From assembly GCA_050749405.1 (NCBI GenBank), contig JBOGRD010000006.1:60892-92891 (forward strand): 32,000 nt of DNA, given 5' to 3'. The stretch is from Nitrosotalea sp. (GTDB lineage Archaea; Thermoproteota; Nitrososphaeria; Nitrososphaerales; Nitrosopumilaceae). Positions 6,340 to 30,654 of this stretch are shown piece after piece (within the stretch, counting starts at the first letter, position 1; each line of letters starts with the position of its first letter). Position numbers and translations under genes: made by a program. A model generated the notes under the pieces. That model searched no databases and was not told the origin of the DNA. It was given only the letters and a program-made list of their open reading frames with translations.

Positions 6340-7179
6340 CTATCCGTATGACTCGTATTTTATCTCGAAGCTTTTGTCAGGTCTCTTGTTTCTCTCAGTT
6401 ACAAATCCTTTTGGAGTCAACACATCGAGACATCCATCTATGGTTCCTTGCCAACCGCAAATGAAAAACACGGTATTTTCCTCGGTAATTTTTTCTCCTA
6501 CCAGTTTCTCAAGCGTCGACATCTCTCCATTTTTTGATTGCAAGAAAGTCTCAACTCTCCCTTTTTGTCCATTCCAAGTTCTGTTGAACCATTCGTCAGG
6601 TCGACTGATGGTTGATCTATATCTGAAGCTCCACTTGTCTTTGCCACGGTCTAGACTCTCGTCTTCAAGATGAGTCAGTTCCTCTCTGTAACCAAGCTCG
6701 TCAACATAGCTTGCACCGTGCAAAACAACTATCTCTCTTTTGCTTCCAGTATCATGAAGGTGACGTGCATAACTGACAAACGGGGCTAAACCAGTACCTC
6801 CACCTAGACAAACAATTCTTCTGTTGTCTGGTTCACCATTTGGTTTCTTTTCTTCAATGGTAAATGCCCCGGTAGGTTTTATCCAAGTAATTTCATCGCC
6901 TTCTTTTGCGCTAAATAAAACTGTTGTAAGGCGACCAGGAAGCGGTTTTCTGACCCATCTTATGTATAATTCGATGTACTTTCTGTTTTCCGGATTTGAG
7001 GCAATCGAATAAGCTCTTCTTATCACCTTGTTCTCTGATTGTACATGGGTACCTAGAGTTAAAAATTGGCCTGGCTTGTATTGAGGCAGTTCTCCTTCTT
7101 TTGGTTTAAATCTGAAAACTGCTAAATCTTCTTTTTGAATTTGAATGTAGGAGACTATTGCTTTGCTTTCTACTACCAC
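6340..7179 (-). CDS. Ferredoxin-NADP+ reductase-type FAD/NAD(P)-binding oxidoreductase
   Basis: RRAYSIAS (RxYS FAD-binding motif), GGGTGLAPF (NAD(P)-binding glycine motif) and a C-terminal aromatic tail YESYG. Confidence 0.85.
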   Translation of the reverse strand: MVVESKAIVSYIQIQKEDLAVFRFKPKEGELPQYKPGQFLTLGTHVQSENKVIRRAYSIASNPENRKYIELYIRWVRKPLPGRLTTVLFSAKEGDEITWIKPTGAFTIEEKKPNGEPDNRRIVCLGGGTGLAPFVSYARHLHDTGSKREIVVLHGASYVDELGYREELTHLEDESLDRGKDKWSFRYRSTISRPDEWFNRTWNGQKGRVETFLQSKNGEMSTLEKLVGEKITEENTVFFICGWQGTIDGCLDVLTPKGFVTERNKRPDKSFEIKYESYG

Positions 7180-9439: not shown

Positions 9440-11209
9440 ATGGAAATAACAATGACAAAAGATAATAACAAAAAACTTTCAAACAAACTTCTTGCAACAG
9501 CAATCGCAGTGGTACTTTGCGGTCTAGCGTATGGCGCATCGCATGCGGCTTATGCTATCACGTGTCCGGCTGGTTCATTTTGCGGAACGCTGTACTACAC
9601 TGACGAATCAAACGTCAAGTCGCTTACATTCCAATATACATCCCCGAATCCTCCTGTTTTTGGACCAGTACAACTCATTTATGGCCCAATCTCACCAGGT
9701 GGTGCTGACGGGTTAACCTTCAATCCTCAGAGCGGAAATCTTCTTGTTGGAGACATTCCTGTTTTGTCTCCAGGTCAAGTAATTTCAGAGGTTGATCCAT
9801 CTGCCATGACGCTGGTCACAACAATTCCAACCGGTGGCGACCCCGCTCACTTGATGGTTGATCCTACAGGCCAAACTCTATTCGGTTCAAACGGTGATCC
9901 AGGAAACCTCATATCGGTGGCATTAAGTCCACTAGGCAGTGGCGTTACGCACCCAATCTCTGGTGACGATGCCAATTTTGGTGTTGACACTGTCCAATGG
10001 TCTGATGCAACACATGCTTTCTACACCTCCGACCACTCAGGTGGGTTTTCGGGTGGAGGTGATGTGGGAACAATTGATATGAACACATTCACTACAACCT
10101 GCTTCAAGACCGCTGGTGTGTGCAACTTTTACCCAGGTGCTCATGGAATGTCCTATGACCCGTTCACTGGTGATCTGATGATCTTCGGCGGAGATCACAT
10201 TACTCAAGTAGACACTTCAGGTAACGTAGTCTCCGACCTTGTAGTCCCAGGTGCACTCTTTGATCAGGGAGCAGTAGACGGACATGGACACTTGCTAGTT
10301 GCAGACCAAGGGCAAGGCGCAATCTTCTTCCTTGATTATTCTGTTGACATGCAGGTCAATGGTCCGCACAAAGTTACAGCCCTAGACTCTGTCGGTGGAA
10401 CTGACGATGTAGCTCCACTCATTGGTCCTGGAACAGACCCGACTACAACTGTAACCACATCCGGCCAAATTGGCAATGATATTCCTGGCACAGCAGTGAC
10501 TGATTCTGCTACGGTGACAGGTTCAGGTACAACACCCCTGCCAGATCTAACAGGTACAGTAAACTTCCAGCTTTGTGGTCCTAATCCAAGTGCGTCAACA
10601 ACTCTAAACTGTGCACCAGCAGGTACAGCCTCAATAACTGTTCCTAATGGAGGTACATTTACAGCTGTTTCACCAGCACAAGCTCCGACAGCAGCTGGTT
10701 CATATTGCTGGACTGCCGCGTTTGTGCCTACTTCAGGCTCTCAATATTCGGGCTCTACCAGTACAACAACTACCAACGAGTGCTTTACCGTATTGTCATC
10801 AACAACGGTAGGTAGCATGACCGGTGGAGGAAGTGTCATCGATCCAACCGTGGGCAAGGTAACGCATGGCTTTGAGCTCCAATGTGATGTCACCAAAAAT
10901 CCTAACAGCCTTGAGGTCAACTGGGGCAAAGGAAACAAATTCCACTTGGATAGCTTGACATCGGCCTTTTGTGTAAATGACACAACGATATCGCCGTATC
11001 CTCCTGCTTCAGGATTTGATACCTATGTAGGTACAGGAACTGGCAGCTACAATGGTGTAGCAGGGGCAACAGCCCAGTGGACATTTACGGATGCTGGCGA
11101 ACCAGGCAAGAACGACCATGCCGCTATAGTCATCAAGGATAGTGGTGGCAGTACTGTATTGTCAGTATCTGGCAATCTCAAGAGCGGAAACCAACAAGCG
11201 CACAATTAA
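9440..11209 (+). CDS. Large secreted/surface protein, unknown function (beta-propeller-like N-terminal part, Thr/Gly-rich linkers, conserved C-terminal beta-rich domain)
   Basis: N-terminal signal-like segment KLLATAIAVVLCGLAYGASHAAYA. Low-complexity T/S/G-rich stretches. C-terminal TFTDAGEPGKNDHAAIVIKD...GNLKSGNQQAHN. G+C is clearly above the local background. Confidence 0.75.
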   Translation: MEITMTKDNNKKLSNKLLATAIAVVLCGLAYGASHAAYAITCPAGSFCGTLYYTDESNVKSLTFQYTSPNPPVFGPVQLIYGPISPGGADGLTFNPQSGNLLVGDIPVLSPGQVISEVDPSAMTLVTTIPTGGDPAHLMVDPTGQTLFGSNGDPGNLISVALSPLGSGVTHPISGDDANFGVDTVQWSDATHAFYTSDHSGGFSGGGDVGTIDMNTFTTTCFKTAGVCNFYPGAHGMSYDPFTGDLMIFGGDHITQVDTSGNVVSDLVVPGALFDQGAVDGHGHLLVADQGQGAIFFLDYSVDMQVNGPHKVTALDSVGGTDDVAPLIGPGTDPTTTVTTSGQIGNDIPGTAVTDSATVTGSGTTPLPDLTGTVNFQLCGPNPSASTTLNCAPAGTASITVPNGGTFTAVSPAQAPTAAGSYCWTAAFVPTSGSQYSGSTSTTTTNECFTVLSSTTVGSMTGGGSVIDPTVGKVTHGFELQCDVTKNPNSLEVNWGKGNKFHLDSLTSAFCVNDTTISPYPPASGFDTYVGTGTGSYNGVAGATAQWTFTDAGEPGKNDHAAIVIKDSGGSTVLSVSGNLKSGNQQAHN

Positions 11210-22188: not shown

Positions 22189-22267
22189 CATAAGTTACAC
22201 TTTTCTGGATTTAGTTTCCCATATAGTTGGTTATGTACCATGATGAGCGTATTCAATATTCGATTTG

Positions 22268-22618
22268 TTATTTTTTGTCTTTTTGAATGGTTTTTCTATA
22301 TCCTATCTTGGTTCTCTTTTCTTGATTCCCGTGTTCTTTTCTTGTGGTGTCATATCTCTGTTTGTTAGGTAATTTGTCTATGGTCTTACCTAGATTATTA
22401 ATTGCAACAAGCGATAATTCTACCCATGAAGATATCAGTTCAGCATTCACAAACGAAGCTGCAATAGACTTGTAGAATGTTTTCACTAGTGGATCTGACT
22501 CGTGAGTTGATTCCTTTAGAAACGCTTCCTTCATACATTTGCAGTCCCTGCGCAAATCTTTTAGATTTGATAAAGTTTCTTCGTTTATGATTTGATTATG
22601 TGTAGACACCATTCTCAA
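22268..22618 (-). CDS. Small helical protein, unknown function; paralog of 22596..22967
   Basis: Third gene of the RHH-led operon. INNLGKTIDKLPNKQRYD aligns with LNDLSGAIEKLPKGVEFD of the upstream gene. Basic Lys/Arg-rich tail. Confidence 0.55.
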   Translation of the reverse strand: MRMVSTHNQIINEETLSNLKDLRRDCKCMKEAFLKESTHESDPLVKTFYKSIAASFVNAELISSWVELSLVAINNLGKTIDKLPNKQRYDTTRKEHGNQEKRTKIGYRKTIQKDKK

Positions 22619-22967
22619 TCATCCTCTTTTCAAAAGCCCGTGCCTTGTCATAGGCCTCTTTAATGGGTTCCAGTGTTTGCTTTACTCTTTCATTTGTTCT
22701 ATGTAACGCTTCCTTGAGATCATCAAATTCTACACCCTTTGGCAATTTTTCTATGGCACCAGATAAATCATTAAGATCTTGTAAATGACTAACGGTAAGA
22801 TCGTAGTGATAGCCTACAGAATCACAAAGAATGCCTAGTGCATACCATTGTATTTTCATATCGATATCGTTTTCTTCATCACCATACTGACGAAACATAT
22901 CAGAATGCTTACGTACTTTATCTCCTATGAATTTTATATTCTGTCTATATTCTATAGGATAAAACAT
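22596..22967 (-). CDS. Small helical protein, unknown function
   Basis: The start abuts the RHH stop (22968/22967) and the 3' end overlaps the next gene by 23 nt, indicating an operon. No recognisable catalytic motif. Confidence 0.6.
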   Translation of the reverse strand: MFYPIEYRQNIKFIGDKVRKHSDMFRQYGDEENDIDMKIQWYALGILCDSVGYHYDLTVSHLQDLNDLSGAIEKLPKGVEFDDLKEALHRTNERVKQTLEPIKEAYDKARAFEKRMIENGVYT

Positions 22968-23165
22968 CTATTCCTTCTCCCTCAATTCATTTTTGACTCT
23001 TTTTGGGTCTTCATCTTCTAACCATGTCTTTAACGCAATCTCTACTAATTGTGACAAATCAACATCTCTATCTATGGCATCCTTTTTTGCTTCCTTCCAT
23101 ATTGTAGGGTCTATCTTGATTGACGTTGTTTCTCTTTTTACAGTTGGATCCAACCTAATCCTCAT
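22968..23165 (-). CDS. Ribbon-helix-helix (CopG/Arc-like) DNA-binding protein
   Basis: TSIKIDPTIWKEAKKDAIDRDVDLSQLVEIALKTWL has the beta-strand/helix/helix pattern. It is clearly homologous to the 25817..25981 product (TSIKIKPSVWKKAKIEAITENKQLSELVEEALEAWF). Confidence 0.75.
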   Translation of the reverse strand: MRIRLDPTVKRETTSIKIDPTIWKEAKKDAIDRDVDLSQLVEIALKTWLEDEDPKRVKNELREKE

Positions 23166-23272
23166 AGGATCTTTATACTATTAGTATTATTTAAATTTTG
23201 TAGTATAGTTGCATGATGGATGTTTTGCTAAATAAAAGTGCGTAATCTAGTGGAGTCAACAACCAGATCATT

Positions 23273-23536
23273 ATGGGGAATATTAACAGGTGGTTATACT
23301 GTAATTACAAATATTGCAAGATCTTGATTGAACAAAGTTCGTGCATTTCACATCATTACCTACTGAAACAACCAATCGACTGTGTCAAAAATTACGTTTC
23401 AAAGAAAGATGCTCAATGTGGTGGAACTCTGAACTATGTAGTTTACGTTAAGGGAATATGTCGTTCTTATGGAAACAATGTGATGTTGGCTCCAATTGTA
23501 ATCCAATTAGATGAAGATAAGGACCAACCACTGTGA
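23273..23536 (+). CDS. Cys-rich hypothetical protein
   Basis: 87-aa ORF with 7 Cys. No recognisable motif; weak support. Confidence 0.25.
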   Translation: MGNINRWLYCNYKYCKILIEQSSCISHHYLLKQPIDCVKNYVSKKDAQCGGTLNYVVYVKGICRSYGNNVMLAPIVIQLDEDKDQPL

Positions 23537-23549
23537 AACAACCAAAATA

Positions 23550-23632
23550 AACACCCATAGATTAGACAGTACCCAAAAAATGATTTTGTGGGATCTAAGG
23601 GTGTTTTAAATGGGTGTTGAAATCGGGGGTGG
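23550..23632 (-). repeat. AACACCC-iteron element, copy 1 (reverse orientation)
   Basis: The reverse strand reads ccaccc-ccgat-ttcaacaccc-attta-aaacaccc...attttttggg...gggtgtt. GGGTGTT occurs at 23599-23605 and 23612-23618, with AACACCC at 23550-23556 forming a partial inverted partner. Confidence 0.7.
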
Positions 23633-23646
23633 TAACCGTCTGTATT

Positions 23647-24531
23647 CTAATCAGCGGGAATTGCATTTGATGGTAATGGGGTTGTAAGTTCTTTGTATCC
23701 AAGATAGGTCATTTTAAGTTCATCTGATTTAGAAACCAGAAGATAAAATGTTTGATCAGGATTGAATCCCATACAAGGAGTTAATTTAACATCTATTATT
23801 ACAATCCCTTGTTTTTCGAAATACGCTTTTGTTACTCCTCGTTCAGAATAGACCAAAGTAGTGTTAGCATAGGGCTTATCCCAAGGAGCATTACAACCCT
23901 TGGAATCAAATTCAAACCAAACTGGCTGTTCTGGATTGGTTATGTTAAGAGGAACCACTTGTCCTTCTACGTCTTTTTCATCTATTGCTTTGAATCCTAA
24001 TTCCATCATCTTTGATGCATCATTCTGCGGAACAAGAAAATAAAAAGTTAGAAATCCACACATGGAAATAGTGTCCGTCGTTATGCTTCCAGTATTTTTT
24101 ACTTGTAGTAATGTAATGCCATGATTCTTGGAATATTCCGCAATAAGTGTAGTATTATACACACTTTCGAGTAGAGTGCTAGTATCATTCGATCTTACTA
24201 ACTCACCTACCCAAGGTATGATTTTACAATTGTCATGTGACCTGACCGCCTCTGTAAACTCGAACCATGCAGTTTGATTCATCACTATTCCCCACCCACG
24301 TTCAACAAGTTTCTTTGCCGTATCAGGTTTTACACAAGCAGGAGAACCATCTAATGTTTTTATCACAAGCACAAATCCTGCTTTGCATTTTACATCAGAA
24401 GTAGATGTGCCATTTTTTAATTGCTTGAATGGTGAGAGTATTAATGTAGCATTTTGAGCAAATGAGAATGGTATTGTTGAAATTGATGAAAGTAAAATTA
24501 CGATAAAAAGCAAGCCATACCAATAGAACAT
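23647..24531 (-). CDS. Secreted protein, unknown function
   Basis: Signal-like N-terminus LLFIVILLSSISTIPFSFAQ. CKAGFVLVIKTLDGSPACVKPDTAKKLVERGWG is a module I recall seeing in secreted thaumarchaeal proteins (from memory, unverified). Confidence 0.7.
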   Translation of the reverse strand: MFYWYGLLFIVILLSSISTIPFSFAQNATLILSPFKQLKNGTSTSDVKCKAGFVLVIKTLDGSPACVKPDTAKKLVERGWGIVMNQTAWFEFTEAVRSHDNCKIIPWVGELVRSNDTSTLLESVYNTTLIAEYSKNHGITLLQVKNTGSITTDTISMCGFLTFYFLVPQNDASKMMELGFKAIDEKDVEGQVVPLNITNPEQPVWFEFDSKGCNAPWDKPYANTTLVYSERGVTKAYFEKQGIVIIDVKLTPCMGFNPDQTFYLLVSKSDELKMTYLGYKELTTPLPSNAIPAD

Positions 24532-24571
24532 TATTCCTTATAAAACACCAGAACTGAAAAGCTTTTGTATT

Positions 24572-25738
24572 TTATTTTTCTAAAGCAAACTGCAATAAAT
24601 CCATCCACTTTACTTTTTTATCTATTACACCTATTTTCTGTGCAGGCGTCCTATTCTGCAATCCCATGTGCGGTTTCACAAAATTATAATGTATCTTCAT
24701 CCCTTCTGGTATCTGGGTTTCCATTGACTTCCAGCCACGCTGTACCTTAATTCTTTCACGCTGAGTACCATTCATTCTCTCAATTCTGTTGTTGTTTGCA
24801 TGAGTTTTTCGTACTCCTTGTCTTGCCTTGTGCCAAGGCTTGTTATCAAAGACCTTTGGTATTACTGAACCATAGGCTCTCAAAGCATCTGTAGTAATGA
24901 TCTTTGGCTGTAATCCATGTGCATTCTTGATAGCCTCTTGGAATGCTTGAATTGCACCGTTGCCATCCCTCTGCTCTGACAGTTTTGAAGCCAAAAGATA
25001 ACGTGTTTTGAAATCCATGACATTCCAAAGGAAAGCCATGTTTGTCTTTTCCCTAATCTCAATACCATCCTTCATTTTTACAAAGACTTCATCGCAAGCC
25101 CATCTCTTGGACTCGGATTCTGGTATAGCCAAAGAATTTACGTATTGGGATATGATGGGTACATATTTCTTTATCCAGCCATAAACGGTAGTGAAATCAA
25201 GTTCCAGCCCAAAGTGGTCATTTACGCTTCTTGCTACTTTTCGAAGCGAGAGACCAGAGAAATAGAGGTCTAGTGTAAGCGTAATGAGTTTGGGATCGTA
25301 CTTTGACTTCTTTACAAGGCTTGGCTCTCTGAACTTGTGCAGACAGTCCTTGCACTTGAAAATCTGTTTTTCTGCGTTCTTGCCATAACGTATAGTTCTG
25401 ATTGAACCGCATTGATCACATTGAACTGAATCATCTGCAAAGACCTTTGGCTTTTCCTTGTTTTGTAAAAAGGTGTTAGTTGCAATCCAAAACTTCAATG
25501 CATAACCATGCTTGCATGTATCAATTTTCTTTTGGATGGAACACCTGTATGTATAATCAGGACAATCACAAGTAAATTTATTCTCAATTATCTTAACAGT
25601 ATATACGACATCTTTACCCGTCTGAGATGGCACGGTAAAACTGCCGTCCTCGTTCTCACGTATCGCTGAGGTTTCAGTTATTGCCATGCCTCTCATCATT
25701 CGGGTTTCCGATTGGTTGTTTGGTTCTTGTAACACCAT
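24572..25738 (-). CDS. Transposase-like protein: SWIM zinc finger + zinc ribbon + HTH + IS6-type DDE domain (copy 1)
   Basis: SWIM CxCxnCxH motif (FTCDCPDYTYRCSIQKKIDTCKH). Zinc ribbon CDQCGS...CKDCLHKF. DDE triad candidates WACDEVFVKM, IITTDALRAYG and NNNRIERMNGTQRERIK. C-terminal HYNFVKPHMGLQNRTPAQK. Confidence 0.8.
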   Translation of the reverse strand: MVLQEPNNQSETRMMRGMAITETSAIRENEDGSFTVPSQTGKDVVYTVKIIENKFTCDCPDYTYRCSIQKKIDTCKHGYALKFWIATNTFLQNKEKPKVFADDSVQCDQCGSIRTIRYGKNAEKQIFKCKDCLHKFREPSLVKKSKYDPKLITLTLDLYFSGLSLRKVARSVNDHFGLELDFTTVYGWIKKYVPIISQYVNSLAIPESESKRWACDEVFVKMKDGIEIREKTNMAFLWNVMDFKTRYLLASKLSEQRDGNGAIQAFQEAIKNAHGLQPKIITTDALRAYGSVIPKVFDNKPWHKARQGVRKTHANNNRIERMNGTQRERIKVQRGWKSMETQIPEGMKIHYNFVKPHMGLQNRTPAQKIGVIDKKVKWMDLLQFALEK

Positions 25739-25816
25739 ACCACTAGTGTTATACTATGCACTATTTAACTCTATACCAAACAGGTTATATACCACAGGTG
25801 GTATTTTGTAATTGTA

Positions 25817-25981
25817 ATGAAAGCAACAACAGAAGAATTGAGAGAATCTACTTCAATCAAAATTAAACCAAGTGTTTGGAAAAAAGCAAAGATAGAGGCT
25901 ATCACTGAAAATAAACAACTATCAGAACTTGTAGAAGAAGCACTAGAGGCATGGTTTGATTCAAAGAGGAAGAATAAGTGA
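25817..25981 (+). CDS. Ribbon-helix-helix DNA-binding protein (54 aa; below the ORF-track size cutoff)
   Basis: Hand translation: MKATTEELRESTSIKIKPSVWKKAKIEAITENKQLSELVEEALEAWFDSKRKNK*. Homolog of 22968..23165. Its start lies 78 bp from the divergent transposase-like gene. Confidence 0.7.
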   Translation: MKATTEELRESTSIKIKPSVWKKAKIEAITENKQLSELVEEALEAWFDSKRKNK

Positions 25982-26558
25982 CTTGGTTAGACTAAAACCC
26001 CTTATAGAAATAGGTTCTGTAATAAGTTCAATCGCTATTTTGTTCTCCATGATGACCGTCATACAGTTTTTTCCTGCAATTCCTTTGGAAAAAGCACTTA
26101 TTTTCTCTGTTTCAATAATTCCACTCGTACCTTATGTTATCTCTGGTAAAATTGAAACTTCCATCCAAAAACTGCGTTTACGCCTGAAAAAACCGAATGA
26201 GCGTGAAATATTAGAATCACGGTTATCAGAGCAGAAACAGGAATTATTACAGAAATTAGATGTTGTTACAAAAGAACTAGAAATGATCCAGTCAGAAGAC
26301 GCTCAAATGGCAAGACTTGCTTATAAAGTTGTCAATGAAGGAAGTTCAAAATTTGCTACCAAAGAGGAAATCAAGGAACTAGCTACTAAAAAGGACATAA
26401 AGGAATTGGCAGGAATGATTTATGATCTTGATAAAAAGACGAAAAACAAGCAGGAATCCGCCACCCAAAATTCAACACCCGAAGAAAACACCCGTAATAA
26501 TCAACAGAACAATTTTTTGGGTTTTGTTGATTCAAGGGGTGTTCTAAAAGGGTGTTGA
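25956..26558 (+). CDS. Membrane-anchored coiled-coil protein, unknown function
   Basis: TTG start overlapping the RHH gene. Two N-terminal TM helices, then heptad-like charged repeats (ATKEEIKELATKKDIKELAGMI). The 3' end overlaps AACACCC element copy 2. Confidence 0.55.
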   Translation: MIQRGRISDLVRLKPLIEIGSVISSIAILFSMMTVIQFFPAIPLEKALIFSVSIIPLVPYVISGKIETSIQKLRLRLKKPNEREILESRLSEQKQELLQKLDVVTKELEMIQSEDAQMARLAYKVVNEGSSKFATKEEIKELATKKDIKELAGMIYDLDKKTKNKQESATQNSTPEENTRNNQQNNFLGFVDSRGVLKGC

Positions 26559-26570
26559 AAAACGGGTGTT
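26461..26570 (+). repeat. AACACCC-iteron element, copy 2: complete imperfect palindrome
   Basis: AACACCC at 26474-26480 and 26487-26493. GGGTGTT at 26537-26543, 26550-26556 and 26564-26570. Arms ttcaacaccc...aacaccc...aatcaaca mirror each other around aattttttgg (about 26511-26520). Confidence 0.8.
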
Positions 26571-26659
26571 GTGTTGACGGCAGAACTACCAAAAGTTTGG
26601 TAGTTTGTTTAAAAACTCAACAAACCCATTCTTAAGGAAAGAAAAGCAGTTTTATTAAG

Positions 26660-26794
26660 ATGAAGCGTATAAATAGACTAGGGAAAGAGGGTGGAGAGGA
26701 AATGACAAAAGAAAGACAAGAAATCTTAGATAAAGTAGTAGATAAACTGTTAAAGGAAAACAAGGTTATATTCGAAAGACTTGACGAAATTTAG
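26660..26794 (+). CDS. Putative antitoxin (44 aa) for the downstream Doc toxin
   Basis: Hand translation: MKRINRLGKEGGEEMTKERQEILDKVVDKLLKENKVIFERLDEI*. Its stop codon directly abuts the doc ATG (TAGATG). Confidence 0.5.
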   Translation: MKRINRLGKEGGEEMTKERQEILDKVVDKLLKENKVIFERLDEI

Positions 26795-27418
26795 ATGGTA
26801 AAACTATCGTCAGATGAGATTATCAGCATTCATGATAAAATTACTGACAGATTTAAAATCACAAAAGGAGTGATCAATAAGAGTATTTTGGACGCAATAG
26901 TTGAACGACCAGAATTACAATTAGAAGATCATAACTATGTTTATGACAGTGTGTTTTCAAAAGCGGCTGCTATCCTAGAGGGAATAATTCGCTGGCATCC
27001 TTTTGCAGATGGAAATAAACGAACTGCATTAGCTACATCCGTATATTATTTAAAATTAGAAGGATATGCTATCGCATTACCCTTAAGTGCAGTTCGTTTT
27101 ACCGTCAATATTGCAAATAACGATAAAACTGATAGTATAAGCACTCAAAAACTAATCGAAGAAATTACAACTTGGTTTAGAGCACATTCTGACCGCAATA
27201 AACTCTTGTTACTCGGAAAGTTGGGACTCTACATTGGCATTCCATACAGATTTTATCAATTTCTAATCAAACTTGGTTTTCTAAATTATGTCTACAAGAA
27301 AGTTGCTTATTGGATGGCTTTTGATATATACCCAGAATATGCAAAAGAAATGAGTGAAATAGCTAAATTCATTCAAGAAACAGTAGATACTAGTTTGACT
27401 GCGGTTTTTGGGAAATAA
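26795..27418 (+). CDS. doc: Fic/Doc-family protein (death-on-curing toxin-like) with an ~80-aa C-terminal extension
   Basis: HPFADGNKRTA at 26996-27028 matches the Doc variant of the Fic motif (HxFx[DE]GNKRxA). Residues after about 125 (LLLLGKLGLYIGIPYRFYQFLIKLGFLNYVY...) are hydrophobic/aromatic and lie beyond the length I recall for canonical Doc (about 125 aa). Confidence 0.8.
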   Translation: MVKLSSDEIISIHDKITDRFKITKGVINKSILDAIVERPELQLEDHNYVYDSVFSKAAAILEGIIRWHPFADGNKRTALATSVYYLKLEGYAIALPLSAVRFTVNIANNDKTDSISTQKLIEEITTWFRAHSDRNKLLLLGKLGLYIGIPYRFYQFLIKLGFLNYVYKKVAYWMAFDIYPEYAKEMSEIAKFIQETVDTSLTAVFGK

Positions 27419-27420
27419 TT

Positions 27421-28581
27421 TCAAACTTCAATAGAATTTCTCGTAGCAAGTTCTAACAAATCCATCCATTTGACTTTCCTTTTGATAACTCCGATCTTCT
27501 GAGCAGGTGTCCTATTCTGTAACCCCATATGTGGTTTTACAAAGTTATAATGAATCTTCATCCCTTCTGGAATTGGAGTTTCCATTGACTTCCAGCCTCT
27601 TTGTACCTTAATTCTCTCTCGTTGAGTACCATTCATTCTTTCAATCCTATTGTTATTTGCATGAGTCTTTCTTACTCCTTGTCGTGCCTTGTGCCAAGGC
27701 TTGTTATCAAAGACCTTTGGTATTACTGAACCATAGGCTCTCAAAGCATCTGTAGTAATGATTTTTGGCTGTAGACCATGAGCATTCTTAATTGCTTCTT
27801 GAAATGCCTGAATTGCACCGTTGCCATCCCTCTGCTCTGACAGTTTTGAAGCCAAAAGATAGCGTGTCTTGAAATCCATGACATTCCAAAGAAAAGCCAT
27901 GTTTGTCTTATCCCTAATCTCAATTCCATCTTTCATTTTTACAAAGACCTCATCGCAAGCCCATCTCTTGGATTCCGATTCTGGTATAGCCAAAGAGTTT
28001 ACGTATTGGGATATGATAGGCACGTACTTCTTTATCCAGCCATAAACGGTAGTGAAATCAAGTTCTAGCCCAAAGTGGTCATTTACGCTTCTTGCTACCT
28101 TTCGAAGCGAAAGACCAGAGAAATAGAGATCAAGTGTAAGTGTAATAAGTTTAGGATCATACTTTGACTTTTTGACAAGGCTTGGCTCTCTGAATTTGTG
28201 CATACAGTCCTTGCACTTGAAAACCTGCTTTTCTGCGTTCTTGCCATAGCGTATGGTTCTGATTGAACCGCATTGATCACACTGGACTGAATCATCTGCA
28301 AAGACCTTTGGCTTTTCCTTGTTTTGCAAAAATGTATTAGTTGCAATCCAAAATTTCAAGGCGTAACCATGTTTACAAGTTTCAACTTTTCTATATGTAA
28401 AATCGGGACAGTTACAGACAAATTTATTTTCGATTATCTTAACGGTATATGCGACATCTTTACCCGTCTGAGATGGCACAGCAAAACTGCCGTCCTCATT
28501 CTCTCGTATTGTTGAGGTTTCAGTTATTGCCATGCCTTTCATCATTCGGGTTTCCGATTGGTTTGTTTCTTTGTTGAACAT
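27421..28581 (-). CDS. Transposase-like protein: SWIM zinc finger + zinc ribbon + HTH + IS6-type DDE domain (copy 2)
   Basis: Near-identical protein to 24572..25738 (about 4 substitutions over the ~300-aa core). The SWIM loop is shorter (FVCNCPDFTYRKVETCKH). The ATG at 28581 (MFNKETNQSETRMM) aligns with the copy 1 start; the track start at 28635 adds an implausible extension. Confidence 0.8.
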   Translation of the reverse strand: MFNKETNQSETRMMKGMAITETSTIRENEDGSFAVPSQTGKDVAYTVKIIENKFVCNCPDFTYRKVETCKHGYALKFWIATNTFLQNKEKPKVFADDSVQCDQCGSIRTIRYGKNAEKQVFKCKDCMHKFREPSLVKKSKYDPKLITLTLDLYFSGLSLRKVARSVNDHFGLELDFTTVYGWIKKYVPIISQYVNSLAIPESESKRWACDEVFVKMKDGIEIRDKTNMAFLWNVMDFKTRYLLASKLSEQRDGNGAIQAFQEAIKNAHGLQPKIITTDALRAYGSVIPKVFDNKPWHKARQGVRKTHANNNRIERMNGTQRERIKVQRGWKSMETPIPEGMKIHYNFVKPHMGLQNRTPAQKIGVIKRKVKWMDLLELATRNSIEV

Positions 28582-28685
28582 GTTTCCCACATACACACAT
28601 ACACACAATATTATAAAAACATTGTGGATAACCACATATTACATATAACCACAATTCTTATATTAATGGTAAATCTAATGTAATT

Positions 28686-28844
28686 ATGGGTAGAATAGAT
28701 GCAATAATTCCTGACGAATTAGAAAAGAAATTACGGATGAAGGCAGTAGAAAGATTCGGTGGAAAGAAAGGCAGTCTAACAGAAGCGTTAGAAGAAGCGA
28801 TTGAGAGATGGGTAAAAGAACAAAAGGAATTGAGCAAGAAATGA
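28686..28844 (+). CDS. Ribbon-helix-helix (CopG-like) protein (52 aa; below the ORF-track cutoff)
   Basis: Hand translation: MGRIDAIIPDELEKKLRMKAVERFGGKKGSLTEALEEAIERWVKEQKELSKK*. Its start lies 104 bp from the divergent transposase-like gene. Confidence 0.7.
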   Translation: MGRIDAIIPDELEKKLRMKAVERFGGKKGSLTEALEEAIERWVKEQKELSKK

Positions 28845-29254
28845 GAAAATATGACAATGAATTTAAAACAGACAAAAAAGTCATAGATAAAGAGGAAATT
28901 ATTCGAAATTTCATTCATGGATTATTACATGGTGAAATTAAAGTTGACCTAACTTTGAGAGATGGAACACGAAACCGAAATACGTTCTATGATAATCTTG
29001 AGCAATTTATCTTAGATTATTTGGATGAAGATAAACCTGAACAAGAAAAAAAGACCATTGCTAAGAATTTATTCAAATTGATAACAACTATGAGAGTAGT
29101 GGATAGAATAACTACCAAAACTGAGACAAGTTCTCAAGAAATTCAGTCCATTAATGAAAGAATAGGCAATATGGATGCAAGATTGAACTCTACTAATAAA
29201 CTACTTGATGAGATTACAAAAATGTTCCCAAAGGGGAATGATCCTGAACCCTGA
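28841..29254 (+). CDS. Small helical/coiled-coil protein, unknown function
   Basis: ATGA overlap with the RHH stop; ATG at 28841 rather than the track start at 28808. C-terminal IQSINERIGNMDARLNSTNKLLDEITKMFPKG is paralogous to the next gene. Confidence 0.6.
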   Translation: MRKYDNEFKTDKKVIDKEEIIRNFIHGLLHGEIKVDLTLRDGTRNRNTFYDNLEQFILDYLDEDKPEQEKKTIAKNLFKLITTMRVVDRITTKTETSSQEIQSINERIGNMDARLNSTNKLLDEITKMFPKGNDPEP

Positions 29255-29256
29255 AT

Positions 29257-29676
29257 ATGACTGAAATATCTGAAAAACCTTCAGAACTTTTCACTCGTGA
29301 ATTTAGACATGAAGTAGTCAATAAATTCATCAAGGAAGTTGCAGAAGGTGCAATTCGAATTATTACTCCTATGAAGTTTGACGATTATGAATATAGAAAG
29401 ATACTTTCTAATTTCTATAGCAAATTTACTAGTAGTGTAGAAGATTATCTTTCAGAGAAAATAAAGGGGGATACGCTGGTAAATTTAGAAGCAGTCATCT
29501 TTGCTGACATTATAACATTACGCACTGCTGGGTTAATTGAAGAGGATAAGTATTCTATACCAGAAGTAAAACAGAAAGTATCCAGTCTAGAAGCAAAGAT
29601 AGAATCAACTAATAACCTTCTATCTGATGTCTTATCAATTCTAATGGAGTTATTGAGACGACTTGACAAGAAGTAA
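29257..29676 (+). CDS. Small helical/coiled-coil protein, paralog of 28841..29254
   Basis: Starts 2 nt after the previous stop. VKQKVSSLEAKIESTNNLLSDVLSILMELL aligns with the C-terminal heptad region of the preceding gene (shared STN-LL core). Confidence 0.6.
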   Translation: MTEISEKPSELFTREFRHEVVNKFIKEVAEGAIRIITPMKFDDYEYRKILSNFYSKFTSSVEDYLSEKIKGDTLVNLEAVIFADIITLRTAGLIEEDKYSIPEVKQKVSSLEAKIESTNNLLSDVLSILMELLRRLDKK

Positions 29677-29968
29677 AGTATTATGCCCTTTCTGCAATAT
29701 TCGGATGTATGAGGTTATTGATGAGGAATATCCTAGGCTACGAACTTATCTATGCTATGAATGTGGATTTCATGCAGATACAATTTTGATGGAACAAAAG
29801 AGCATGTATCTGCATTATCAGGAGTTATTTGCTCATTTTAAGGATGTATTAAAGCCAAAGAAACTACTACCACCCAAATTTCAACACCCAGATAAAACAC
29901 CCGAAGACTCAACAGAACACAAAAAATTGATAAAGCCAAGTTTAACTGAAATTTTTTGCAAACTATGA
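29663..29968 (+). CDS. Zinc-ribbon protein, unknown function
   Basis: TTG start overlapping the previous gene by 14 nt. CPFCNIRM...CYECGF four-Cys ribbon. The 3' part overlaps AACACCC element copy 3. Confidence 0.5.
   Translation: MTRSKVLCPFCNIRMYEVIDEEYPRLRTYLCYECGFHADTILMEQKSMYLHYQELFAHFKDVLKPKKLLPPKFQHPDKTPEDSTEHKKLIKPSLTEIFCKL
29870..29925 (+). repeat. AACACCC-iteron element, copy 3 (left arm only)
   Basis: ccacccaaatttcaacacccagataaaacacccgaagactcaacagaaca, against copy 2 ccacccaaaattcaacacccgaagaaaacacccgtaataatcaacagaaca. No GGGTGTT arm follows. Confidence 0.75.
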
Positions 29969-30064: not shown

Positions 30065-30274
30065 ATGTACCAATTCGTACAGCCGCAATCAGACAAACCT
30101 AACTACACTGCAGGTCAGACGTGGGGGGCTTTGAAGAAGGCATGGCGAGGATACAAGATTGCCAAAGTGCAAACTGATCATGCCAAAATGTCAGAATATG
30201 CCAAGAAGATAAGGACCCTCCAGAATGACTTGGGAATAAAACAGGCAGAATTTCCAGGACTAAACCTGCATTAG
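30065..30274 (+). CDS. Small hypothetical protein
   Basis: 69-aa ORF with balanced, non-repetitive composition and no overlapping alternative. No motif recognised. Confidence 0.4.
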   Translation: MYQFVQPQSDKPNYTAGQTWGALKKAWRGYKIAKVQTDHAKMSEYAKKIRTLQNDLGIKQAEFPGLNLH

Positions 30275-30374
30275 TTAGAATTCCCTTCTTTTTAGAGGGA
30301 GTTTGCAGTGAGAACTATTGGCAAAATTTACAATTTTGGGATTAGTGTTGATTTTCAATCAAATTGTGAAAAGG

Positions 30375-30448
30375 CGGGTTCGCGGGGATTCGGACCCCGG
30401 ACAGCCGGATTAAAAGTCCGGTACTCTACCTGGCTGAGCTACGAACCC
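30375..30448 (-). tRNA. tRNA-Lys (anticodon UUU)
   Basis: Reverse complement: GGGTTCG-TA-GCTC-AGCCAGGTA-GAGT-A-CCGGA-CTTTTAA-TCCGG-CTGTC-CGGGG-TCCGAAT-CCCCG-CGAACCC-G. All stems pair perfectly. The T loop reads TCCGAAT (C at position 55). Confidence 0.85.
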
Positions 30449-30545: not shown

Positions 30546-30654
30546 GCCCTTGTAGTATAGAGAGGATGTGGGGTAAAATCCAATCCTTGTATAGCCCGGT
30601 CTAGAATGGGGCCCTGTCACGGCCTCGACGCGAGTTCAAATCCCGCCAAGGGCG
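30546..30654 (+). tRNA. tRNA-Asp (anticodon GUC) candidate with a ~34-nt non-canonical intron in the D-arm region
   Basis: Acceptor GCCCTTG (30546-52) pairs with CAAGGGC (30647-53). Anticodon arm GGGCC-CTGTCAC-GGCCT. T arm GCGAG-TTCAAAT-CCCGC (one A-C mismatch). A canonical D loop AGCCCGGTCTA appears only if about 34 nt (roughly 30556-30594; the junction is ambiguous because TATAG is repeated) are removed. Confidence 0.55.

Follow-up and report, generated by a model that had tools for sequence, protein, structure and literature searches.

Insertion of IS6-family elements duplicates, as a standard, 8 bp of the target. The IS6/IS26 family (IS26, IS257/IS431, IS6100, IS240) is described in reviews as consisting of 0.8-kb elements bounded by inverted repeats of 14-20 bp, with long forms in Clostridia (clades h and i) whose transposases have a zinc finger at the N-terminus (PMC7986276, PMC6807381), and as essentially cargo-free, a single passenger-gene IS6, ISDsp3, being present in ISfinder (PMC7986276). 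Archaeal IS6 clades in ISfinder stem from Halobacteria, Thermococcales, Methanococcales and Sulfolobales; according to the reviews they encode short single-ORF transposases (ORF, open reading frame), and neither an N-terminal extension nor members from Thaumarchaeota/Nitrososphaerota are mentioned (PMC7986276, PMC6807381). The text of the main survey of thaumarchaeal mobile elements does not mention IS6 by name (PMC6563490). Here, we analysed 32,000 nt of Nitrosotalea DNA (called the window; all coordinates are positions in this whole stretch) that contains two closely related transposase genes with an IS240/IS6-type catalytic core. The genes very probably belong to two different elements, called E1 and E2, from a family of IS6-related DDE transposons that is widespread in archaea and carries cargo. 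E1 and E2 stand head-to-tail beside a decayed third element, E0. Our literature searches found no description of this transposon family.

The elements of this family share with IS6/IS26 the IS240-type DDE catalytic core and the standard length of the target duplication, 8 bp, which was seen in 12 relatives and additionally at the locus L082 (loci are cited by such numbers). The tips of the relatives start with GG and contain CTGTT, matching the consensus 'GG ... cTGTt' (PMC7986276). The family differs from IS6/IS26 in size (2.2-6.6 kb versus 0.8 kb), in the cargo found on both sides of the transposase gene, in its ends of about 52-58 bp with three internal boxes (versus 14-20 bp) and in about 140 extra N-terminal residues of the transposase, which comprise a SWIM-like module and a zinc ribbon. 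It lies outside the size, single-ORF and short-repeat description of IS6 and below the NCBI equivalog cut-off (105 < 125). IS6-type transposases can accordingly drive multi-gene transposons in archaea, in a family regarded as essentially cargo-free.

The clostridial forms of clade h/VII (ISCpe7, ISClte3) and clade i/VIII (ISTet2, ISHahy6, ISHco2) carry a CxxC zinc finger as an N-terminal extension that precedes the helix-turn-helix (HTH) and DDE domains, and clade i has a further N-terminal domain with a signal peptide (PMC7986276, PMC6807381), in contrast to the CxCx(n)CxH motif found here. These elements are bacterial, 1.2-1.7 kb long and without cargo, and the likeness is one of description, not of compared sequence. 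The archaeal IS6 clades of ISfinder share with the present elements their archaeal hosts and inverted repeats of at least 18 bp, which often start with GG and have G at position 7 (PMC6807381), as does GGTTCTG here.

Transposases, terminal repeats and 8-bp junctions in the window

The two transposase genes lie on the reverse strand at 24572..25738 (copy 1, 388 aa, identified as an ORF with Pfam and NCBIfam matches) and 27421..28581 (copy 2, 386 aa from the ATG; an alternative GTG start at 28635 gives 404 aa). Both match Pfam DDE_Tnp_IS240 (PF13610) at 53.5 bits against a cut-off of 27, with weaker rve matches, and the NCBIfam IS6 model NF033587 with an E value of 3e-30, covering model positions 2-201/202. 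The domain order in copy 1 is a SWIM-like CxCx(n)CxH motif, a C4 zinc ribbon (C107/C110/C129/C132), predicted helices that may form an HTH, and the IS240/IS6-type DDE core (D216, D284, E320). When residue conservation was scored across 26 homologues, D216, D284, E320 and R327 were invariant, as were the four zinc-ribbon cysteines and the C57-x-C59...C75-x-H77 signature. Residues 107-138 match the transposase zinc ribbon (IS1/IS1595 N-terminal Zn domain, NCBIfam) above the cut-off.

A first-pass annotation, made from the sequence alone, had spoken of a SWIM finger whose fusion to an IS6-type core was unusual. The motif itself stands, being invariant in the homologues, whereas Pfam SWIM (PF04434) is matched weakly and below its cut-off (11.5-15.2 bits versus 19.6, E 0.016-0.23); the relative in L082 likewise has a precomputed 'SWIM (weak)' match. 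An AlphaFold2 model places three strands and a helix in the CxCx(n)CxH region, with a predicted local distance difference test score (pLDDT) of 74-82. By fold (Foldseek), the model matches ISCth4, TnsB, MuA and retroviral integrases, i.e. the generic DDE fold; because its overall pLDDT is 65 and its C-terminal third is poor, we draw no domain-level claim from these matches. A sequence search of the PDB detected no relative of the transposase. The view of the fusion as unusual has to be softened: more than 700 homologues (731 clusters at 90% clustering, E<=1e-5) have the same architecture, mostly in Nitrososphaerota and often on short contigs, and zinc-finger-extended IS6 transposases have already been described in Clostridia (PMC7986276, PMC6807381).

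The same annotation, which had weighed about 300 bp around the genes, reported no inverted repeats of the IS6 kind. A search with an end motif known from a related locus revealed five copies of an end sequence of about 55 bp in the window, with none elsewhere in it, where the pattern search expects 0 by chance. The ends bracket the transposase genes at 0.9-1.4 kb, a distance that follows from the transposase being embedded in a cargo-carrying element. Each end consists of a tip and GGGTGTT boxes 13 bp apart; the tip is IS6-like (TGTTCTGTTGA), with the consensus G/T-G-T-T-C/T-T-G-T-T-G-A. E1 (23582..26511, 2930 bp) is bounded by end A (23582..23636, plus strand, GATTTTGTGGGATCTAAGGGTGTTTTAAATGGGTGTTGAAATCGGGGGTGG) on the 3' side of the transposase gene and by end D (26457..26511, minus strand, TGTTCTGTTGATTATTACGGGTGTTTTCTTCGGGTGTTGAATTTTGGGTGG) on the cargo side. 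E2 (26520..29919, 3400 bp) is bounded in the same order by end B (26520..26574, plus strand, GGTTTTGTTGATTCAAGGGGTGTTCTAAAAGGGTGTTGAAAAACGGGTGTTG) and end C (29865..29919, minus strand, TGTTCTGTTGAGTCTTCGGGTGTTTTATCTGGGTGTTGAAATTTGGGTGG). The fifth copy, end E (about 23519..23573, minus strand), aligns with the other four and forms the right end of E0, with its tip ...GACAGTACC at 23573. End A retains the boxes at 63% identity to end D, and end D is 81% identical to end C. End B is 94% identical to the matching end of a further element, E3, in L095, and end C is conserved in L001/L095, where homology breaks at its inner edge.

Facing tips in the window are exactly 8 bp apart, and one 8-mer or its complement occupies all three junctions. 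Spacer 1 (23574..23581), between the tips of E0 and E1, is CAAAAAAT; spacer 2 (26512..26519) is ATTTTTTG, the reverse complement of the other two; spacer 3 (29920..29927) is again CAAAAAAT, a direct repeat of spacer 1, and is followed by the host flank. On the plus strand the array reads E0 tip ...GTACC, CAAAAAAT, E1, ATTTTTTG, E2, CAAAAAAT, TGATAAAGCC...

The ends were located by way of the distant inverted repeats of relatives and then by alignment of the flanks of L001 and the window, which are 95% identical from the tRNA-Lys side through TGTTCTGTTGA...GGGTGTT...GGGTGTTGAA, after which homology breaks. Ends of the GGTTCTG/CAGAAC type, sought up to 400 bp upstream and up to 150 bp downstream of each gene, were uninformative, as was the tip-like sequence GGTTCTGTTCC when searched with 3 mismatches across the window (85 matches versus 70 expected). 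A repeat search over 23900-29300 flagged an inverted pair at 26462/26537 and did not pair the ends, since these are only 63-67% alike.

Relatives and tandem arrays at 8-bp spacing

A scan of GTDB species representatives yielded 228 loci, many of them only C-terminal fragments, with relatives across Nitrososphaerota and other archaea. Long inverted ends surround most full-length relatives and are perfect over 51-58 bp in L017, L035, L040, L041 and L063. Tips in relatives read GGTTCTGTT... at both ends. Perfect 8-bp direct duplications, checked by script, flank 12 elements of 2.4-6.6 kb. Each end comprises the tip and three boxes of 7-8 bp about 13 bp apart, and the box sequence varies by subfamily (GGGTGTT, GGTTGTTC, GGGGTGAT, TTCGGCTGAT). 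In the trio L015/L021/L032, homology stops sharply 26 bp past the stop codon at ...GGAACAGAACC, the complement of which, GGTTCTGTTCC, resembles the IS6 tip consensus 'GG..cTGTt' (PMC7986276); the left end of these elements lies 1.1-1.5 kb upstream of the gene and does not adjoin it. A member of another subfamily (33% aa identity) was found between PadR and sdhA in a Nitrosotalea metagenome-assembled genome (MAG; L082, 3390-6292). It has 52-bp inverted ends with TTCGGCTGAT boxes and the duplication CTGACCTC, and L083 provides the corresponding empty site.

Relatives measure 2.2-6.6 kb, carry 2-6 extra ORFs between ends of about 52-58 bp and follow one plan: end, cargo gene(s), transposase, a divergent small gene of the ribbon-helix-helix (RHH) type with a cargo operon, and the other end. 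The small divergent gene encodes an RHH, AbrB, HTH or Zn-ribbon protein, and the cargo varies, comprising type I/IIG restriction-modification genes (L041, L063), an HNH nuclease, proteasome-like proteins and also toxins. Ammonia-oxidising archaea, for which little is known about mobile elements, harbour such transposons with restriction-modification genes, toxin genes and genes without assigned function. Decayed copies exist as well: C-terminal fragments among the 228 loci, the frameshifted E3, and the remnant of E0 in L095. A scan of viral contigs gave only distant, short IS6-like matches of 24-41% identity and no evidence of a viral vehicle.

Extra partial copies of the end lie inside or just outside the element in L012 (5177-5200 and 6412-6463) and L040 (5950-5979), and no target duplication was found in L040 and L029. 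The extra ends and the missing duplications hint at nested or rearranged elements.

Adjacent elements with neighbouring tips exactly 8 bp apart recur in L017, L035 (on both sides), L051, L003, L016, L054, L059 and L068, and in L042 the tips are 9 bp apart. Tips facing each other at 8 bp were seen in Nitrososphaerota, Aenigmatarchaeota and Woesearchaeota, and in such arrays the target duplication is itself the spacer. Tip-to-tip spacings of 0-30 bp peak at 8 bp (8 cases versus a mean of 1.5, Poisson p 2e-4); a stringent motif leaves 4 cases at 8 bp and 1 at 9 bp, against 3 over the other 39 spacings. Together with the three different occupancies beside E0 described below, this excess suggests that insertion is aimed at the 8 bp flanking a resident end. 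Arrays abutting at 8 bp would provide a testable rule for how hotspots or small genomic islands form beside a relic end, and it is the element family with this possible end-seeking insertion, rather than the pair of paralogues, that makes the locus of interest. Tandem casposon insertions in Thaumarchaeota share with these arrays only the proximity to a resident end; the elements here have no sequence-specific attachment site, as their target duplications vary from locus to locus.

In a working model that we infer from these sequences and that extends to current activity, DNA binding, regulation and the targeting rule, the transposase would bind the boxes through its zinc and HTH modules and cut at the tips. 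The tips would then be joined to a target cut with an 8-bp stagger, producing the 8-bp duplication, by chemistry that could be either replicative or cut-and-paste. New copies would prefer the 8 bp abutting a resident end, so that tandem arrays build up, and the RHH protein would probably act as a repressor of the promoter region between the two divergent genes. Mu and Tn7 have ends with several repeated transposase-binding boxes each. This likeness is one of working manner, not of membership; transposase families and accessory proteins differ. The multi-box ends are clear substrates for biochemistry.

Site occupancy, divergence and competing explanations

The array lies between argH and a 69-aa ORF (30065..30274) followed by tRNA-Lys (30373..30448). 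The occupancy of this site was traced in related genomes with argH as anchor gene. In L085/L086, argH is directly followed by the homologue of the 69-aa ORF, i.e. the site is fully empty. L083/L084 contain E0 alone, whose tip is followed by G-CAAAAAAT, present once, and then by the same flank. In L001, another Nitrosotalea MAG, and in L095, a longer contig of the same strain, E0 is followed by one other element, E3, and then by the same flank; in L095 the order is E0-CAAAAAAT-E3-CAAAAT-flank. The transposase of E3 is frameshifted, and its cargo differs from that of the window elements. Since the 8-mer is single in the pre-insertion state of L083, it represents the duplicated target. The array site is an insertion hotspot in the Nitrosotalea genome.

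The window and L095 are 96.6% identical over 8.4 kb, with a synonymous divergence (dS) of host genes of 0.07-0.11 (dS and the ratio of non-synonymous to synonymous divergence, dN/dS, are Nei-Gojobori estimates from codon alignments). E0 is orthologous in both (dS 0.17); in L095 (about 6630-7100) it retains beside its tip a transposase 3' remnant of about 205 bp that is lost from the window copy. In contrast, the transposases of E1, E2 and E3 differ mutually by a dS of 0.58-0.60 (dN/dS 0.06-0.08), which exceeds 5-8-fold the host dS of strains with unlike occupancies. It follows that the lineages of the three elements separated well before the strains and came to the site independently. As judged from these distances and from the unrelated cargo, E1 and E2 are independently acquired elements, neither a domesticated gene nor a local duplication. 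Of the two explanations offered by the first-pass annotation, independently acquired related elements or a domesticated transposase, the former is thus borne out; the latter conflicts with the location of both genes inside elements with ends and the 8-bp repeat, at a site that is empty in close relatives.

The E3 frameshift (144 aa plus a second frame) is the same in L001 (1568-2715) and L095 (4149-5296). Its identity in two assemblies points to a genuine pseudogene and not to an error in sequencing, though both contigs may come from the same strain.

The gene comparison itself agrees with what had been read from the sequence at first pass. Differences between the two copies are scattered over the DNA, which is 88.7% identical over 1142 nt, and 113 codons differ in the codon alignment, 88 of them synonymously and 25 non-synonymously. 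Codons 76-372, after the CxC...CxH motif, contain exactly the four replacements listed before (I126V, L133M, E230D and Q342P). The predominance of synonymous changes, ascribed to strong purifying selection, is reflected in a dN/dS of 0.061 for the whole gene (dS 0.60, Fisher p 7e-47) and of 0.012 for the core of about 300 codons (75 synonymous versus 5 non-synonymous differences, Fisher p 3e-51), whereas the N-terminal 75 codons have a dN/dS of 0.27. The five additional residues of copy 1, noted earlier as a loop insertion, are CSIQK and lie in the Cys/His loop, after the two cysteines and before the Cys-His pair. At the borders of the genes DNA homology ends, and the C-terminal tails are unlike, as had also been observed.

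What does not hold is the premise that such selection, together with absent inverted repeats and duplications, argues against an insertion sequence. The ends exist, and purifying selection is expected when separate lineages of an element are compared, as the element must stay functional to spread. The near-identical proteins on diverged DNA reflect long purifying selection in separately arriving element lineages. Strong selection and seemingly missing inverted repeats are no sign of domestication when cargo places the ends at least 1 kb from the gene.

We consider it highly improbable that the two genes are exapted paralogues kept for a cellular function outside any mobile element. In favour of this reading, the core dN/dS of 0.012 indicates very strong selection, stronger than that on argH between comparable genomes (0.10), and the ends in the window are imperfect. 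Both genes, however, lie inside elements with terminal inverted repeats and 8-bp flanking repeats, and the locus is empty or otherwise occupied in genomes at a host dS of 0.07-0.11, unlike a syntenic single-copy orthologue. Relatives with clean inverted ends and target duplications, as well as fragments and a frameshifted copy, likewise speak for mobility, the DDE residues are intact, and comparable selection is seen between other mobile copies (L015 versus L021, dN/dS 0.04). Somewhat less remote, yet still improbable, is a local tandem duplication of one element that diverged in place for a long time and later had its cargo replaced. The head-to-tail order, the shared end family, the identical 8-mer at the junctions and the 81% identity of the cargo-side ends C and D would fit such a history. 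The dS of 0.60, however, amounts to 5-8 times the host dS among strains that have no copy, one copy, which belongs to a third and equally distant lineage, or two, so that the split predates arrival, and the cargoes of E1 and E2 are without homology apart from a weak RHH similarity.

Rather unlikely, but the most plausible of these alternatives, is a joint arrival of E1 and E2 as a composite that moved by its outer ends A and C, a variant that differs only in history from the reading of E1 and E2 as separate members of the transposon family. Only the outer 8-mers (23574..23581 and 29920..29927) are direct, as expected for one insertion into the single CAAAAAAT of L083, and the ends of E3 in L095 stand at the junctions that A and C take up in the window. 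This history leaves the exact reverse complement in the internal spacer unexplained, and the ends of E3 are closest to B and C (92-94%) and not to A (about 78%), which fits E2 as the first resident and E1 as the later arrival.

Several observations weigh against E1 and E2 as successively inserted IS6-related transposons. The NF033587 equivalog scores, 105.6 and 104.9 bits, are below the cut-off of 125. Partner ends are imperfect (A/D 63% and B/C 67% identity, with tip and boxes retained), and the window tips begin with GA, TG and GG instead of GG/GG, reading TGTTCTGTTGA, GGTTTTGTTGA and GATTTTGTGGG in degenerate form; with such ends, both elements may have lost their mobility. The 8-mer is inverted around E1 alone and around E2 alone and is a direct repeat only around E1 and E2 together, so that simple sequential insertion needs an extra step in which the middle 8 bp are inverted. 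Pairs of near-identical copies within one genome were not found, the closest intragenomic pair, L015/L032, being 87% identical; metagenome-assembled genomes collapse repeats, which bears on such copy counts. Finally, the array E0|E1|E2 is known from one assembly, as L081 is identical in sequence to the window and hence not independent.

For the extra step, the direct, inverted, direct pattern of spacers would result if the 8 bp separating ends D and B, which face each other, had been flipped. Inversion of E1 with its flank, nested insertion, and a circle or dimer junction were also considered as origins of the inverted middle spacer, and none of them gives direct-inverted-direct. Tentatively, and with rather less confidence than we place in the assignment of E1 and E2 to the family, the elements could be seen as undescribed, phylum-spanning IS6-derived archaeal cargo transposons with ends of about 55 bp (a tip and three boxes) and end-seeking insertion. 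The E0 relic would then have served as a landing pad for successive unrelated elements with defence or addiction cargo, and the inverted middle 8-mer would stem from a later flip of the loop between facing ends.

Gene content of the elements and minor observations

E0 (22189..23573, minus strand) is a relic without a transposase gene, inverted relative to E1 and E2. It contains an RHH gene (22968..23165, minus strand) whose product is 54% identical to the E1 RHH protein, and two further ORFs on the minus strand of 123 aa (22596..22967) and 116 aa (22268..22618). Only its right end E is recognisable; no left boundary was detected near the argH stop codon.

In E1, the cargo ORF of 294 aa next to end A (23647..24531, minus strand) encodes a hydrophobic segment at the N-terminus together with a WING-49 domain (NCBIfam NF058652, 79 bits versus a cut-off of 22). 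The divergent promoter region (25739..25816) contains a palindrome, ACCACAGGTGGT, at 25791..25802, a putative operator. It is followed by the RHH-like gene of 54 aa (25817..25981, plus strand), which is divergent from the transposase gene, has weak Pfam matches of the RHH type and closely resembles a 56-aa gene at the equivalent position in L017. The cargo ORF of 200 aa (25956..26558, plus strand) has a hydrophobic N-terminus followed by a coiled-coil-like part; it runs through end D and the spacer, and its true stop is uncertain.

E2 starts with a 44-aa ORF (26660..26794, plus strand), a candidate antitoxin gene that is also called in L081 and for which a family search gave no match. Directly after it follows a Doc/Fic toxin gene (26795..27418, plus strand; Pfam Fic E 1e-12; TIGR01550 death-on-curing 59.8 versus a cut-off of 38.65). 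The Doc gene lies between end B and the stop of the transposase gene, with the convergent stop codons just 2 bp apart. Beyond the transposase gene, the divergent promoter region (28582..28685) contains the palindrome TGTGGATAACCACA, again a possible operator, and the RHH-like gene of 52 aa (28686..28844, plus strand) matches Pfam RHH_6 below threshold (E 0.003). The cargo operon (28808..29968, plus strand) comprises ORFs of 148 aa (28808..29254), 139 aa (29257..29676) and 101 aa (29663..29968, Cys-rich), for which family searches gave no match. Apart from the weak RHH similarity, the cargoes of E1 and E2 have no homology.

The last cargo ORFs of both elements (25956-26558 and 29663-29968) read through the terminal repeats, that of E1 through the spacer into E2. 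As the end-encoded C-terminal tails are in different frames, they probably represent ORF run-on and not a conserved peptide.

Elsewhere in the window, an Rfam scan found tRNAs only. The G+C content rises to 0.49 at about 9500-11000, versus a background of about 0.38, with no Rfam family matched there. At 30584-30653, where the Rfam tRNA model stays below its gathering score, ARAGORN calls a 70-nt tRNA-Asp.

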